This document shows, piece after piece, positions 2,476 through 7,613 of a DNA stretch of 9,675 nt. Within the stretch, counting starts at the first letter, position 1. Each line of letters begins with the position of its first letter. Position numbers and translations under genes: made by a program. Origin of the DNA: a plasmid; the sequence record CP124586.1; one strand, 5' to 3'. The notes below the pieces were generated by a model. That model was not told where the DNA came from. It ran no database searches and was given only the letters and a program-made list of their open reading frames with translations.

Positions 2476-3108
2476 TTACTGAGCTTTACCATAAAAAGAA
2501 TGCATTTTTGGGGTGCGTTTATAAGGATGATAATGAAAATATTTACCTTTCCTATTTTGATCTATTTCATGGATTGGTAAACCATTTTTATTTGCTCCTC
2601 TAGCTACTTCTTTAGCTTGATTCTTAGATACTGACCAGACATCTTTCTTTGATTTTGCACGCTTAATAGCATTTGTTCTAGACAAACCACTTCCAAGATA
2701 TAGTTTATAATCCTTTAACACAGCTCTATAGTGGTTATATTTTCTCTTTGGTGACTTCATAATAGAAGCGATTGATTTTGCTGCAGCCACCATTCTTTGT
2801 CCTTCTACTACAATAAAATAAGCAGCTGTGACTGATAATATTATTTCAACACCAGATGCAACTAAGATTGGTATTGCAGGAGCAACATTATTATGAACAC
2901 TAGCTGTTTGTACTATAGTCGAATCTTTGGTCTGTGTATTTGTTAAGTTTGCATATGTATTATCATTCGAATCAGCGATAACATCAGCATCAAATGTTTG
3001 AACTTTATTATCTACGAGACTTTTAACATCAAAATCTCCTTTTACTATATCATAATCAAAATGTGCAATAGCACCATTTGACTCTGTTATGGAATTTTTA
3101 AGGTAACT
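2476..3108 (-). CDS. Start-less C-terminal fragment of a larger protein. It has a D/T/Q-rich segment, one hydrophobic helix (VAPAIPILVASGVEIILSVTAAYFIVV) and a very basic 100-aa C-terminal domain (K/R-rich, with a ...GKYFHYHPYKRTPKMH... motif). The first ATG is at 2793, which would give a 105-aa product. Candidate orphan toxin C-terminal module.
   Basis: Manual translation shows the frame open from the stop at 3109-3111 down to 2476, with no ATG, GTG or TTG before the codon at 2791-2793. That codon has a plausible AAGGA RBS. The basic ORF is followed tightly by an acidic ORF with a strong RBS, the typical toxin-immunity arrangement. The integrase stop codon lies only 30 bp upstream of the open frame. 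Confidence 0.45.
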   Translation of the reverse strand, partial: SYLKNSITESNGAIAHFDYDIVKGDFDVKSLVDNKVQTFDADVIADSNDNTYANLTNTQTKDSTIVQTASVHNNVAPAIPILVASGVEIILSVTAAYFIVVEGQRMVAAAKSIASIMKSPKRKYNHYRAVLKDYKLYLGSGLSRTNAIKRAKSKKDVWSVSKNQAKEVARGANKNGLPIHEIDQNRKGKYFHYHPYKRTPKMHSFYGKAQ

Positions 3109-3117
3109 TTAAGGTTT
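3097..3117. repeat. Tandem TTTAAGGTAAC / TTTAAGGTTTG repeat at the junction between the recombinase gene's 3' end and the truncated toxin-like ORF. It carries the 10-mer TTTAAGGTTT that recurs at 3841, 3881 (inverted) and 4381 (inverted).
   Basis: Exact motif matches read from the sequence. Four copies of a GC-containing 9-10-mer within 1.3 kb of AT-rich DNA is far above chance. Confidence 0.55.
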
Positions 3118-3140
3118 GCAAATTTAATTAAAGATTATTT

Positions 3141-3710
3141 TTATACCTTATATAAATTTTCCATGGTATTACTGATAGATTCGTTCATCATATCCTGGTT
3201 AATTCCAATGTATTTCAGTGTTACATACTGAGAAGAATGATTAAATAGATTCATCAACAAAGCAATATCCTTCGTTTTCTTGTAGTAGTGGTAACCAAAG
3301 GTCTTACGCATCGAATGTGTTCCGATTTCACTTAAACCGATTGATTTAGCTGAATGATTCAGGATTCTATAAGCCTGTACACGACTGATGGGTTTACTTT
3401 TGCCCTCAGAATCGAGTTTATTGCTTTTAAACAGATAATCTTCATCCTCCAGGAACTGAATATAACGATCGATATCCTCCTTTAGATGATAAAGGGGGAT
3501 TTGTTTTTGTTTACGGGTTTTCTGCTCTCTTAATTTTATTATATAATCTTTAATATCTTTTTTCTTCAGTCCCAACATATCGCTCACTCTCAGGCCACAG
3601 TTAATTCCGAGATTAAACAGAAAAACGTCGCGTTCCGATCCATAGTAAGCGAGCGCCTCTTTCATCTCCTGTATCTTTTTCACGTCTCGAATCGGTTCTA
3701 CGCTGTTCAT
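3141..3710 (-). CDS. Small tyrosine site-specific recombinase, about 189 aa, consisting of the catalytic domain only (FimB/FimE-size).
   Basis: The catalytic signature is present: GLRVSD (box I Arg), HSMRKTFGYH (H-x-x-R) and NHSSQYVTLKYIG (His/Tyr nucleophile region). An AGGAG RBS lies 9 nt upstream of the ATG at 3708-3710; the GTG at 3719 is an alternative start. No N-terminal core-binding domain is encoded, because a stop occurs at 3753 and non-coding repeats lie upstream. Confidence 0.85.
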   Translation of the reverse strand: MNSVEPIRDVKKIQEMKEALAYYGSERDVFLFNLGINCGLRVSDMLGLKKKDIKDYIIKLREQKTRKQKQIPLYHLKEDIDRYIQFLEDEDYLFKSNKLDSEGKSKPISRVQAYRILNHSAKSIGLSEIGTHSMRKTFGYHYYKKTKDIALLMNLFNHSSQYVTLKYIGINQDMMNESISNTMENLYKV

Positions 3711-3783
3711 CCAAATCACTCCTATATGATACGTATAATGTACGTATTGATATCACTATGATACATTATTTCAGGCATAAAAA

Positions 3784-3808
3784 TAAACCCCTTTTGTGCT
3801 GGGGTTTT
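3784..3808. terminator. GC hairpin AAACCCC-TTTTGTGCT-GGGGTTT with U-runs on both sides. Bidirectional terminator or insulator between the recombinase gene and the small +strand cassette.
   Basis: A 7-bp G/C-rich stem flanked by AAATAAA on one side and TTTTGT on the other. Confidence 0.55.
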
Positions 3809-3810
3809 GT

Positions 3811-3838
3811 ATGTAACATAATTCCTATTGTGTTACAT
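3811..3838. repeat. Lox-like palindromic site A: ATGTAACATAA-TTCCTAT-TGTGTTACAT (11-7-10).
   Basis: Shares the 13-mer ATGTAACATAATT with site B at 4248-4277. Has the inverted-arm architecture typical of tyrosine-recombinase core sites. Confidence 0.55.
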
Positions 3839-3895
3839 TATTTAAGGTTTAAATATTGAAAAAAACATTTTACTATATTTAAACCTTAAATAATG
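3836..3895. repeat. Perfect 21-bp inverted repeat CATTATTTAAGGTTTAAATAT ... ATATTTAAACCTTAAATAATG separated by 18 bp. The arms contain the TTTAAGGTTT motif and are flanked outside by ATGTAA(C)A-type half-sites.
   Basis: Exact reverse-complement match over 21 bp. Located between the recombinase gene and the promoter of the small ORF. Confidence 0.7.
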
Positions 3896-3920
3896 TAAAT
3901 AATATAAAAGTAATTTCTAT

Positions 3921-3949
3921 TTGACTAAGTTACAAAAAAAGTATATATT
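3921..3949 (+). promoter_or_regulatory. Sigma-A-type promoter TTGACT-N17-TATATT driving the 67-aa ORF.
   Basis: Near-consensus -35 and -10 with 17-bp spacing, about 30 bp upstream of the RBS (AATGAGGT) of the ORF at 3978. Confidence 0.6.
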
Positions 3950-3977
3950 GAACAAAAAATAAAATGAGGTTTATACA

Positions 3978-4181
3978 ATGGATATCATATGGTTAATTGT
4001 TTTTTGTCTAATAATTATCTGGGTTACAATTACAATAGGGCTTTTCATTAGAAGATTGTTAAATAATATGAAGCAGAGAACAAAAAGTAGAATTGAATTA
4101 GAAGCACTGCAGAAGAAAGAACTTGAGAAAAGAATTGAAATATTGGAGCAACAATTGGCAGAGAGAGATAATAAACTTTAA
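3978..4181 (+). CDS. Small bitopic membrane protein (67 aa): N-terminal transmembrane helix plus C-terminal charged coiled-coil (ELEALQKKELEKRIEILEQQLAERDNKL).
   Basis: Good RBS (GAGGT, 8 nt). Has its own promoter and a strong terminator. Function unknown. Confidence 0.6.
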   Translation: MDIIWLIVFCLIIIWVTITIGLFIRRLLNNMKQRTKSRIELEALQKKELEKRIEILEQQLAERDNKL

Positions 4182-4205
4182 AAGATCTGGAGAGATCTCA
4201 GATTG

Positions 4206-4246
4206 AAGACAAACTCACAATTCTAAAAGTGAGTTTGTCTTTTTTG
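4206..4246 (+). terminator. Rho-independent terminator: 13-bp perfect stem AAGACAAACTCAC / GTGAGTTTGTCTT, 10-nt loop, then T6.
   Basis: Read from the sequence immediately after the stop of the 67-aa ORF. Confidence 0.85.
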
Positions 4247-4247
4247 T

Positions 4248-4277
4248 CATGTAACATAATTACCATTATGTTACATG
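4248..4277. repeat. Lox-like palindromic site B: CATGTAACATAAT-TACC-ATTATGTTACATG (13-bp perfect arms; can also be read as 11-8-11).
   Basis: Perfect inverted arms. Shares ATGTAACATAATT with site A 437 bp upstream. The two sites bracket the small-ORF cassette. Confidence 0.6.
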
Positions 4278-4642
4278 AATTTTTAAAGAGACGCACTATT
4301 CAATTAAAAGTATAATAATAGAATTCTAATTGATTATTATAGCTGTAGACTAAATAGACGAATGAAGCGAATGATTGTACAACCTTAAATTTTTAAAAAT
4401 TCAGTAATAAATAGAATTATTACGGTATACTGAAAAAATAAATTATAGAGGTGATAAAATATAAATATAATGAAACATTATACTAATTACTTTAATTTTA
4501 TCTAAAGAAATATCCATTATTTAAAAATAAAGTAGTGTCATGGAAGAAAGTGAGATTTCAATGGCTAAGAAAAAAGAAAGGAATAGTGAAGTAATCTATT
4601 CAACATCGAAGGAAATTGTCATCAATATCGCGAGGTGAAAGT

Positions 4643-6735: not shown

Positions 6736-6800
6736 AACAAGGATTAGTTCCATGGAAACACCGAACCCCCTGACTGCTGGAACAGTTAGGGGGTTTTTTA
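6736..6800 (+). ncRNA. Predicted antitoxin sRNA (RNA II-like) of an Fst/par-type type I toxin-antitoxin system.
   Basis: Its own promoter gives a product of about 65 nt. It converges on the toxin gene and shares the bidirectional terminator. It contains TTCCATGGAA, whose halves (TTCCAT, ATGGAA) recur in direct DNA orientation in the toxin 5' UTR (6924-6929, 6942-6947), together with AGAC..TTA (6732-6738 and 6952-6960). This is the par-like direct-repeat arrangement that gives RNA-RNA complementarity. Confidence 0.45.
6764..6799. terminator. Bidirectional intrinsic terminator: 13-bp stem (1 mismatch) AACCCCCTGACTG / CAGTTAGGGGGTT, loop CTGGAA, then T6.
   Basis: Read from the sequence. It lies between convergent transcription units, as at the par locus. 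Confidence 0.8.
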
Positions 6801-6817
6801 GGTGCTGGTATGCCGTC

Positions 6818-6910
6818 TTACGACTTACGTTGATCTAACCAGTGAGAAAACAACGCAAGGACCACACCGACAATAATCGGCGCAACTATATTTACAAGGA
6901 TATAGTCCAT
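6818..6910 (-). CDS. fst: Fst/Ldr-family type I toxin peptide, 30 aa: MDYILVNIVAPIIVGVVLALFSHWLDQRKS.
   Basis: Found by manual reverse-complement translation; it is absent from the ORF track. Strong match to pAD1 Fst (MKDLMSLVIAPIFVGLVLEMISRVLDEEDDSRK). GGAGGTGA SD 5 nt upstream. The SD sits inside a GGAGGUGAUCUCC hairpin, followed by a second 8-bp 5'-UTR hairpin (CUUCCAUA...UAUGGAAG). A candidate -10 (TATAAT, minus strand, +strand coordinates 6965-6970) is present. Confidence 0.8.
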   Translation of the reverse strand: MDYILVNIVAPIIVGVVLALFSHWLDQRKS

Positions 6911-7072: not shown

Positions 7073-7444
7073 ATGACAAATATTGATTACGAAAAAGAAA
7101 TTCAAGCGTTAGAAGAAAAGAAGAAACAACTATTGAAAGAAAAGCGTGAAAAAGATAAGAAAGAACTTCAGACCTTAAAAGAAGTCTTTGGTAAAGACTT
7201 CCCAAGAAAAGAGAATGGTAAATTTATCTCGTTAGATGAATTTAAGAAAAATTATGTCATTTCACATAAGGATCAGTCAGGGATTGATTCGAATAAATTG
7301 AATGAAGTTCAGGAAGAACTCAATCAATTAAAGAAGGCGCTGAATGGCATTGCGGATGCAATGGACGATTCAAGAGGCTACTGGCACGTGAGTGATCTTA
7401 AGGGGTTAACGAATTGGTTATCACAGTTTAGAACGAAGGGCTAA
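7073..7444 (+). CDS. Hypothetical protein (123 aa) with an N-terminal K/E-rich coiled-coil.
   Basis: AGGAGG RBS 7 nt upstream. No recognisable motif. Confidence 0.55.
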   Translation: MTNIDYEKEIQALEEKKKQLLKEKREKDKKELQTLKEVFGKDFPRKENGKFISLDEFKKNYVISHKDQSGIDSNKLNEVQEELNQLKKALNGIADAMDDSRGYWHVSDLKGLTNWLSQFRTKG

Positions 7445-7462: not shown

Positions 7463-7493
7463 ACAAAAGATACTGGTATGCAGTATCTTTTGT
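7463..7493 (+). terminator. Hairpin with a 13-bp perfect stem ACAAAAGATACTG / CAGTATCTTTTGT and loop GTATG. The U-tract lies within the 3' arm.
   Basis: Read from the sequence, 19 nt after the stop of the gene at 7073-7444. Confidence 0.5.
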
Positions 7494-7560
7494 ATCGAAT
7501 GGATTGGATTAGGATGACGTAAGTAGTCATCATATTCAAATCAATTTGATGAGGTTTTCT

Positions 7561-7613
7561 ACAAAAATCCATCCAAACATCATGTGATGTTTGGATGGAT
7601 TTTTGTATTTTAT
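7561..7613. terminator. Large hairpin with a 20-21-bp perfect stem ACAAAAATCCATCCAAACAT / ATGTTTGGATGGATTTTTGT followed by ATTTTAT. Terminator and/or relaxosome/oriT-associated structure upstream of the mob promoter.
   Basis: Exact 20-bp reverse-complement arms read from the sequence. Confidence 0.55.

Follow-up and report, generated by a model that had tools for sequence, protein, structure and literature searches.

The 9,675-bp stretch of DNA considered here (sequence record CP124586.1; "the window" denotes this stretch at its full length) behaves as a complete, small, mobilizable plasmid of Macrococcus (Staphylococcaceae), and it matches a family of MOBP plasmids from Macrococcus and Macrococcoides end to end with 85-94% identity. 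It carries a gene, int, for a small tyrosine recombinase (Int) and, on the 5' side of this gene, two 28-bp palindromic sites, A and B, which bracket a 410-bp module. We think it fairly probable that this locus is a plasmid-borne, Xer-like site-specific recombination system with a single recombinase, which would serve multimer resolution and give rise to arrays of modules. In related plasmids and chromosomes, the site next to int is conserved in position, unrelated sequences begin exactly at its outer edge, and modules with exact site junctions occur in different arrangements. The recombinase-site locus, which is situated between the accessory region and the backbone of the plasmid, consists of the following parts:

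3141-3710, minus strand: int, encoding a 189-aa tyrosine recombinase with the catalytic domain only (PF00589)
3720-3784, minus strand: 5' region of int with ribosome-binding site, presumed promoter and two direct TATGATAC repeats, conserved in all nine aligned plasmids
3785-3808: conserved G+C hairpin between int and site A, terminator-like on the minus strand, then TTTATTTTTAT
3811-3838: site A, int-proximal, 28 bp, ATGTAACATAA / TTCCTA / TTGTGTTACAT (whole site ATGTAACATAATTCCTATTGTGTTACAT)
3839-4248, plus strand: module of 410 bp with a hairpin, a promoter, an open reading frame (ORF) of 67 aa and a terminator (labelled M03 and M04 in two comparisons)
4249-4276: site B, distal, 28 bp, ATGTAACATAA / TTACCA / TTATGTTACAT, with perfect arms (whole site ATGTAACATAATTACCATTATGTTACAT)

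A one-domain recombinase and its dif-like sites

An earlier note on this stretch, made from the letters alone, had described the protein as a tyrosine recombinase of about 189 aa that consists of a catalytic domain only, and this description is borne out by the profile searches. The match to PF00589 has an E-value of 6.6e-21 and 75.3 bits (cut-off 27.1) and covers residues 16-174 of 192; the open frame (3141-3719, minus strand) reaches a GTG at 3719, and its likely start, an ATG at 3710 that lies 8 nt after a GGAG, gives 189 aa. The homologues of Int are uniformly 179-197 aa long, and the shortness of the protein is therefore a family trait and not the result of a truncation. R44, K67/K70, H135, R138, H161 and Y170 are invariant in an alignment of 41 homologues that reaches down to 53% identity, so that Int has both the catalytic R-K-H-R-H/W-Y set and the Phage_integrase fold of the tyrosine recombinase superfamily.

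Among proteins of solved structure, archaeal XerA and XerH come closest in sequence, and the alignment with XerA starts at residue 119 of that protein, which is the start of its catalytic domain. The AlphaFold model of Int, with a predicted local distance difference test score of 87, superposes on the catalytic domains of XerA, XerH, IntI, Tn1549 Int, lambda Int and Cre, the first three being the best matches in the PDB, and covers only about 37-50% of the two-domain targets; the N-terminal core-binding domain of about 100 aa that characterizes two-domain ("simple") recombinases is missing from Int. The scores with NCBIfam Xer equivalogs remain below the respective cut-offs (XerA 62.5/220; XerD 49.9/329.6; XerC 46.9/335; XerS 42.9/267), as do those with the integron-integrase model TIGR02249 (22.4 bits, cut-off 265) and with the profiles of tyrosine-type DNA invertases (38.9 versus 222, and 24.6 versus 221), and Int aligns across nearly the whole of the 198-position FimB-type profile (positions 10-175). 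The invariant residues, the model, the extent of the alignments and the profile scores together indicate that Int, a one-domain tyrosine recombinase, is catalytically intact and combines an Xer-like sequence with a FimB/E-like architecture. The names of its homologues in databases are generic ("tyrosine-type recombinase/integrase"), the exact Int protein of the window was absent from the contig index, and the defence-system profiles of PADLOC gave no match for Int or the small ORFs.

The sites are best written as 11-6-11 (or 12-4-12), with arms of the form ATGTAACAYAA and a centre of the form TTNNNA. Site A had already been placed at 3811-3838, and only its geometry, previously 11-7-10, needs amendment; for site B, the palindrome stands, and the former boundaries and geometry (4248-4277, 13-4-13) give way to 4249-4276 and 11-6-11 or 12-4-12. 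The two sites are in direct orientation and their centres, TTCCTA (TCCT) and TTACCA (TACC), differ at two positions; the DNA next to site B on its far side is backbone-proximal. A relaxed scan of the window, for which 0.36 sites are expected per shuffled window, revealed no further good copies. A degenerate site-like sequence, ATGAAACATTATACTAATTACTTTAATT, is found at 4470-4497; it has six mismatches to the consensus, is kept in relatives, is close to chance level and may be a decayed former site.

The motif had been thought to match no described att, res or dif site, yet the Xer/dif architecture is recognizable in its length of 28 bp, its inverted 11-bp arms and its 6-bp centre. The right arm, TTATGTTACAT, agrees with the XerD arm of the Escherichia coli dif site at 10/11 positions and with that of Bacillus subtilis dif at 8/11 (both dif strings are confirmed in PMC3025954). 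The left arm matches either XerC arm at only 5/11 positions, and distinct XerC and XerD arms are thus not present. Because both arms have the same sequence, the site suits a homodimer rather than a pair of XerC and XerD.

The short DNA segment between int and site A contains two further conspicuous elements. Positions 3755-3766 (ACTATGATACAT) agree with the right arm of the sites at 10/12 bases (two mismatches), and this half-site may, as a conjecture from its sequence and position, be an accessory or autoregulatory Int-binding element. The hairpin at 3785-3808 folds with -9.5 kcal/mol (z=-2.7, minus strand) and is present in all relatives, and its loop shows compensating changes; it would insulate int from transcription leaving the array.

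Site-bounded modules in Macrococcus plasmids and chromosomes

The comparison was based on 27 Macrococcus loci on plasmids, contigs and chromosomal islands, of which 21 were compared first and six contigs were added. In all 27, the first site has one fixed position, 92 bp before the GTG of int and after the conserved terminator-like hairpin, and the orientation of int and its spacing to the site are identical. The arms are nearly invariant, and the four central bases occur in at least 15 forms (TCCT, TCAT, TACC, TAAC, TTAT, TGGT, TGGC, TGTA, TACA, TAAT, TAGC, TGCG, ACAT, TATC and TCTT). Invariant arms around a hypervariable centre are the pattern to be expected if the centre were the spacer of a tyrosine recombinase site.

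The breakpoints of homology coincide with the sites. The megablast matches of most relatives end at query positions 940-948, that is, at the outer edge of site A, and in the base-level alignment five unrelated sequences begin directly after its right arm. Plasmid p19Msa1047-3 is collinear with the window up to a point inside site A and again from a point inside site B, and precisely the segment between these two points is missing; the plasmid has kept a single site with the centre of site B, and the junction lies inside the shared left arm. Its sister plasmid in the same strain, p19Msa1047-2, has the module. The missing segment and the arrays described below bear out one half of the switch or cassette proposed in the earlier note, namely, a cassette between recombination sites; the other half, inversion, does not agree with the direct sites and with the single orientation found in the Macrococcus loci. 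The suggested check of homologous loci for alternative orientations gave no variation of int in any of the 27 loci, and the four plasmids with the module all have it in one orientation. A flip of int or of the module was thus rejected for the Macrococcus loci, and inverted repeats that flank a segment found in both orientations, as in an invertase switch, were encountered neither in the window nor in the 27 loci.

Among the 21 loci compared first, ten have one site, seven have two and four have three (a chromosomal locus of M. canis and plasmids p18KM1742-1, pMP21332_1 and p19Msa0383-2), and the six further contigs have one or two sites each. The junctions of the modules are exact at the edges of the sites, and the same terminal flank either borders on the int-proximal site or is separated from it by one or two modules. 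In three loci, the cadD/arsR flank follows the int-proximal site without a gap, and in two others a pair of modules intervenes. Two plasmids share a 302-bp module and differ in the modules after it, a module encoding a 92-aa ORF takes first place in one array and second place in another, and the flank that follows site B in the window is a closed 3.2-kb module in two metagenomic contigs. The sites of the arrays all have one polarity, as seen from the T/G asymmetry of the arms in 32 of 44 sites and from the fact that TACC never occurs as GGTA. Direct sites with unlike centres have a geometry that suits excision and integration, not inversion. Together, these comparisons support the view that sites A and B act like recombination sites and the intervening DNA like a cassette.

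Four modules of about 300 bp (loci L098, 1301-1602; L099, 18499-18801; L097, 5590-5910; L093, 9011-9296) resemble one another at their ends: one end consists of about 45 bp of terminator-like sequence, and the conserved stretch beside the site is about 55-67 bp long. Their interiors differ and apparently code for distinct small hydrophobic ORFs; a shared cassette chassis is suggested by this structure. The previous description of the 410-bp module of the window as bracketed by sites A and B and containing a promoter, a 67-aa ORF and a strong terminator was correct in every part:

3833-3898: long hairpin with 31-nt arms (3833-3863 and 3868-3898) that carries a pair of copies of the 10-mer TTTAAGGTTT; -26.6 kcal/mol, z=-8.6
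3921-3949, plus strand: promoter-like TTGACT-17-TATATT for the small ORF, 10/12 matches
3978-4181, plus strand: 67-aa ORF (from the ORF list) with an N-terminal hydrophobic helix and a charged coiled-coil tail
4205-4246, plus strand: intrinsic terminator of the small ORF, -20.4 kcal/mol, z=-5.2, then TTTTTT

The 67-aa ORF has only a weak match to DUF4083, under the Pfam cut-off. Searches for the module elsewhere returned it only at the same position in three plasmids and in one Logan contig, which stems from SRR24415345 and is identical to positions 3293-4419 of the window; the only contig with an identical 67-aa ORF has the arrangement of the window.

The outermost site usually has the centre TACC, which is also found in several single-site plasmids, and this fits a scheme in which newer modules enter next to int and push the ancestral site outward; the inference is weakened because the centres do not consistently follow either neighbouring module. 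The simple rule that a centre always travels with the distal module holds for three flank types (TACC) and fails for three others. Strain 19Msa1047 holds three plasmids of the family, p19Msa1047-2, -3 and -4 (L005, L007 and L011), the int-proximal centres of which are TCAT, TACC and TTAT, respectively, and site B of p19Msa1047-2 is identical to the sole site of p19Msa1047-3. Three different centres within one strain fit the idea that the centre controls which co-resident plasmids can recombine.

The int-site module is also present in Macrococcus chromosomes (L093, 8983-9900; L094, 3657-9903; L095, 9870-9897), and a separate gene for a full-length integrase (338-344 aa) lies a few kb away in two of these three loci (L094 and L095), which argues that the int-site module rides on more than one kind of mobile element. 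A copy of int with about 90% nucleotide identity is found on the Staphylococcus aureus plasmid NC_010077 (L012, 3943-4353) and on about 20 other S. aureus plasmids; it is annotated with 411 nt, abuts an element of the IS6 family (ISSau6), has no site beside it and is apparently an inactivated remnant. At the other end of int, homology decays within about the last 15 codons of the gene, and scans of whole plasmids revealed no second site that would bound the large cargo region beyond its 3' end.

Proposed mechanism, wider family and rival explanations

In the mechanism that we propose, a homodimer of Int would bind both arms of a site, two bound sites would synapse, and strands would be exchanged at the borders of the centre, the asymmetry of which would set the orientation and the compatible partner sites. 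One function would be to resolve plasmid multimers through recombination at the single int-proximal site, comparable to Cre/loxP or Xer/cer. This is taken as the primary role because one site beside the gene is the commonest layout and occurs on plasmids of all sizes, a layout that fits a multimer-resolution role for Int and is known from Cre/loxP, ResD/rfsF and XerS/difSL. The other function would be recombination between replicons or with excised circles, by which modules would be inserted, deleted or swapped beside int, resulting in arrays of direct sites; an exchange of this kind has been proposed for the pdif modules of Acinetobacter. Excision of the 410-bp module would be expected to leave the empty-site junction GGGGTTTTGT-ATGTAACATAAT-NNNN-ATTATGTTACAT-GAATTTTTAAAG, and the circular module would have the junction GAGTTTGTCTTTTTTGTC-[site]-TATTTAAGGTTTAAAT. 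Tyrosine recombinases need homology in the spacer, and by analogy exchange between unlike centres should be inefficient. With two mismatched positions in the centres of A and B, excision of the module is probably a rare event, which would explain its persistence; the stability of two-site arrays could likewise be explained if only arrays with unlike centres survived an active resolvase.

Several points weigh against this reading. The same mismatch of the centres means that direct recombination between A and B should be inefficient. The support is comparative throughout, and neither an excised circle, nor reads of an empty site, nor the resolution of a dimer has been observed. The 410-bp module has been found in one genomic position only, the centres do not travel consistently with the module on either side, the largest cargo region, situated beyond the opposite end of int, has no site at its borders, and 50 of 80 genome loci with an Int homologue have no recognizable site. 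To our knowledge, the recognition of an 11-12-bp arm by a catalytic domain alone and without helper has a precedent only in FimB/FimE, which need IHF and Lrp. Furthermore, the arms could conceivably be bound by the host XerD.

A more far-reaching view, which we advance tentatively and hold to be possible rather than probable, is that plasmids and islands of Firmicutes carry a previously unrecognized gene-cassette platform, composed of a one-domain Xer-like recombinase, modules of promoter, ORF and terminator, 28-bp dif-like sites and a barcode in the centre, in which one family would carry out resolution, exchange and inversion. The three to four variable bases of the centre would be a compatibility barcode: identical centres would recombine (multimer resolution, or inversion if the sites are inverted), and with unlike centres, modules would stay fixed and co-resident sister plasmids would be prevented from fusing. 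The arrangement of the sites alone would then decide between resolution, cassette exchange and inversion.

The family of Int is large and extends far beyond Macrococcus. A tblastn search found it on 1182 plasmids in PLSDB (Enterococcus 559, Bacillus 337, Clostridium 77), including vanA and mercury-resistance plasmids of Enterococcus faecium and plasmids of the B. cereus group. The palindrome ATGTAACACAAT-N4-ATTGTGTTACAT is present in 30 of the 80 genome loci with an Int homologue and never in shuffled sequence; it is nearly always situated 5' of int, for the most part at a distance of 94-145 bp from the start, and at 50-55% identity of Int its hosts are Clostridia and Bacilli, among them Clostridium, Gracilibacter, Aneurinibacillus, the B. 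cereus group, Lentibacillus and Romboutsia. More diverged Int proteins appear to have correspondingly diverged palindromes. Thus, B. mycoides plasmid pBM9 (L102) encodes an Int with 43% identity and has two 5' palindromes of 28 bp (1126-1153 and 1381-1408) with the arms ATGTAAAC...GTTTACAT, which are closer to the XerD arm of Firmicutes dif, and these two sites bracket 227 bp with a terminator hairpin; E. faecalis plasmid pNY13412 has a weaker palindrome of 27 bp with the arms ATGCGACA/TGTCACAT and five mismatches to the consensus.

A metagenome scan for the exact site pattern yielded at least 120 loci (L111-L230) from gut, termite-gut and fermentation samples. Among the matches listed, 54 have an Int homologue with 31-50% identity, mostly with the site 30-101 bp upstream, and 46 have two sites, the centres of which are nearly always reverse complements (ACCT/AGGT, ATCC/GGAT, GTTT/AAAC). 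Inverted pairs with identical centres, again among the matches listed, are either about 113-250 bp apart or 625-983 bp apart around int. Examples from metagenome contigs are:

L114, 2819-2987: inverted pair of sites
L111, 903-1936: inverted pair of sites
L118, 587-1598: inverted pair of sites

In L118, a diverged contig, the inner int segment is flipped relative to the outer flank when compared with eight relatives. A search for orientation variants of the short segments between inverted sites found none, all 29 comparable metagenomic pairs being concordant. Because distant relatives have inverted pairs with reverse-complementary centres, the Int family can probably invert DNA and probably includes invertases, which partly backs the former inversion idea at the level of the family and not at the window locus.

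With regard to rival explanations, we consider it rather unlikely that Int and the proximal site serve multimer resolution only, with the additional sites as relics of fusions and the presence or absence of modules due to RecA-independent slippage or homologous recombination between the identical 12-13-bp arms rather than to movement of cassettes by Int. In favour of such an account, the single site is the commonest arrangement (10 of 21 Macrococcus loci, and 74 of 120 among the metagenomic matches listed), the A/B junction of p19Msa1047-3 falls into a perfectly identical stretch of 13 bp, A and B have mismatched centres, the 410-bp module occurs in one context only, and some distal sites are decaying (site B of pMP8659_3, ATGAAACAAAAT, and the distal site of L013). 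However, modules recur in different arrays and positions with exact site-bounded junctions, the distal sites have mostly kept near-perfect arms, three-site arrays exist in four independent loci including a chromosomal island, and a single polarity is kept by all sites.

It is improbable that the sites are of the pdif type and are used by the host XerC/XerD, a role proposed for these enzymes at the Acinetobacter dif modules, so that the small Int would have another role, for example, in regulation or as an accessory protein. The 11-6-11 layout over 28 bp, the agreement of the arm with XerD arms of dif (8-10/11) and the site-bounded modules would all be in accord with host recombinases; yet both arms are XerD-like and neither is XerC-like (5/11 to either), the site is genetically linked to int, with a constant spacing between the two, and both have been conserved together in distant Firmicutes, divergence of Int goes along with divergence of the arms, and every catalytic residue has been kept.

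Very improbable is the possibility that the palindromes are operators and that Int or another plasmid protein only regulates int and its neighbours, in the manner of the integrase-like regulator FliZ. The position of the site 5' of int, the half-site-like repeat that overlaps the presumed int promoter and a weak promoter-like match that is overlapped by site B would agree with operators, but unrelated DNA that starts exactly at the site edge in different plasmids, the arrays of modules and a free centre with kept directionality would be left unexplained, as would the invariance of the catalytic residues.

An inversion switch had been suggested partly on the basis of the 10-mer TTTAAGGTTT, of which four copies had been reported. 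Three are exact (3108, 3841 and 3881, the last on the minus strand; chance expectation 0.08), and that at 4381 agrees at only 9/10 positions (TTTAAGGTTG). The copies at 3841 and 3881 are the two arms of one long hairpin, and that at 3108 belongs to a tandem repeat:

3097-3117, minus strand: tandem ACCTTAAA-N3-ACCTTAAA with an 11-bp period, which contains the 3108 copy; candidate regulator motif

The tandem motif is missing downstream of int in all eight relatives examined, and it occurs at other places in p19Msa1047-2 (7474-7492), p19Msa1047-3 (7558-7576) and p19Msa1047-4 (7123-7141). It typically lies just upstream of promoter-like sequences or ORFs; in the window, its positions are 3097-3115 and 4380-4389. 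It lies outside the recombination system, is probably a regulator-binding motif and accounts for the copies at 3108 and 4381. No homology breakpoint lies at any TTTAAGGTTT copy and the 3108 copy is absent from the relatives; therefore, the flanking of int by inverted copies, to which the earlier note had drawn attention, is an accident of the window plasmid. Consequently, TTTAAGGTTT was rejected as a recombination site.

Compared with pMP8659_3, p19Msa1047-2 and pMP21332_2, the 18-bp loop of the long hairpin (3857-3874) has exactly the reverse-complementary sequence, and the arms and surroundings are collinear. Flips of loops inside long hairpins are a known outcome of replication and template switching. 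The arms carry no full Int site and 18 bp are too short for a synapsed reaction, and this flip is therefore probably due to hairpin-mediated template switching or intra-arm recombination and not a product of the recombinase. The excess of exact TTTAAGGTTT copies over chance, the inverted loop, and the distant relatives with inverted sites and a flipped int segment in L118 notwithstanding, flipping of int and/or the module between inverted TTTAAGGTTT copies or between sites A and B is the least probable explanation and hardly credible, given the unconserved 3108 copy, the single orientation of int and the module in all Macrococcus loci, the direct orientation of A and B, and the concordant metagenomic pairs.

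Several features lie outside the recombination system. Profile searches identified genes for a helix-turn-helix replication protein, a NikA-like protein and a MobA/VirD2-type relaxase in the window. A match to the Fst antitoxin RNA in the window is below threshold, and no known RNA family matched in the int-site region. The 105-aa ORF at 2476-2793 (minus strand) is the tail of a frame that is open for about 206 codons up to 3096, that has no ATG, GTG or TTG start in its upstream part and that contains a hydrophobic segment there; the ACCTTAAA tandem immediately precedes this frame, which may represent a gene that is truncated at its 5' end or has an unusual start. Positions 7560-7607, 1772-1823, 1878-1913 and 6778-6868 cover the Fst match and the candidate origins, which are:

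5' of the NikA-like and relaxase genes: 23-bp perfect inverted repeat; candidate origin of transfer
5' of rep: 25-nt inverted repeat and 18-bp perfect palindrome; candidate origin

Comparison with known recombination systems

Searches of the literature on Macrococcus plasmids, on pdif sites outside Acinetobacter, on plasmid-borne Xer-like or one-domain recombinases and on the site sequence itself (subscription journals not covered) gave no account of the system. We place it with known kinds, namely, Xer/dif recombination, dif modules and integron-like arrays, from which the dedicated one-domain enzyme, the symmetric arms and the direct-repeat arrays set it apart. If Int moves modules, the system would be a Gram-positive counterpart of integrons and of the Acinetobacter dif modules, equipped with a minimal enzyme of its own and with a 28-bp site that is simple and programmable. 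Members of the family are frequent in gut metagenomes as well as on plasmids, and the cargo of the Macrococcus arrays includes cadmium-resistance (cadD/arsR) and small membrane-protein modules. A recombinase of 189 aa that reads a site of lox size without a core-binding domain would also be of interest for work on recombinase mechanism and genome engineering.

The pdif modules of Acinetobacter are found on small plasmids with several 28-bp sites of the 11-6-11 type that bound modules, and their mechanism has been deduced mainly from comparative genomics (for example, PMC6449649, PMC13141974). Both systems have site-bounded modules on plasmids, with the same module in different contexts. In contrast to the locus described here, pdif sites differ in their XerC and XerD arms, occur in alternating orientation and are attributed to the host XerC/XerD without a dedicated recombinase; here, the arms are alike, the sites of the arrays are direct rather than alternating, a minimal recombinase is encoded at a fixed distance, and the hosts are Firmicutes.

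The resemblance to integrons lies in the layout: a recombinase gene that is divergent from the primary site is followed by an array of site-bounded modules (two or three sites in 11 of 21 Macrococcus loci), the same flank is found with none, one or two modules inserted beside the proximal site, and IntI is among the best structural matches of Int. However, Int scores far below the integron-integrase cut-off and lacks the N-terminal domain, the array sites, near-perfect 12-4-12 palindromes in double-stranded form and identical to the primary site, are unlike attC, an imperfect site that is recombined as a folded single strand, the modules have their own promoter and terminator and integron cassettes are mostly promoterless, and the arrays are short, with a maximum of three sites seen.

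The invertases FimB and FimE resemble Int in their size of about 190-200 aa and in the near-complete alignment with the FimB-type profile, and distant relatives of Int have inverted pairs that flank segments of 113-250 bp or the recombinase gene. The profile score of Int is nevertheless far below the invertase cut-off, and the Macrococcus sites are direct, have unlike centres and show no orientation variants. RecV of Clostridioides difficile can be named as a functional analogue only. In Tn4430, the resolution site of the Firmicutes tyrosine recombinase TnpI is located directly 5' of the gene and consists of a palindromic core and extra copies of the binding motif; TnpI itself is a two-domain protein of about 284 aa. 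The right-arm-like half-site at 3755-3766, between int and site A, recalls this arrangement by its layout, and an accessory role for it would be conjecture.

The single-recombinase systems XerS/difSL, XerH/difH, archaeal XerA/dif and Cre/loxP share with the present locus one recombinase, a palindromic site and a short asymmetric centre, and a role in dimer resolution would match. XerS is genetically linked to its site (PMC2731167). The "XerD" of pBAS2, considered as a possible relative, was set aside because it is a full-length protein and thus belongs to a different family. The enzymes of these systems have core-binding and catalytic domains and 280-360 aa, Int remains far below the Xer cut-offs, and the Int system is borne by plasmids and islands and is not chromosomal; XerA and XerH are nevertheless the best matches of Int in both sequence and structure.

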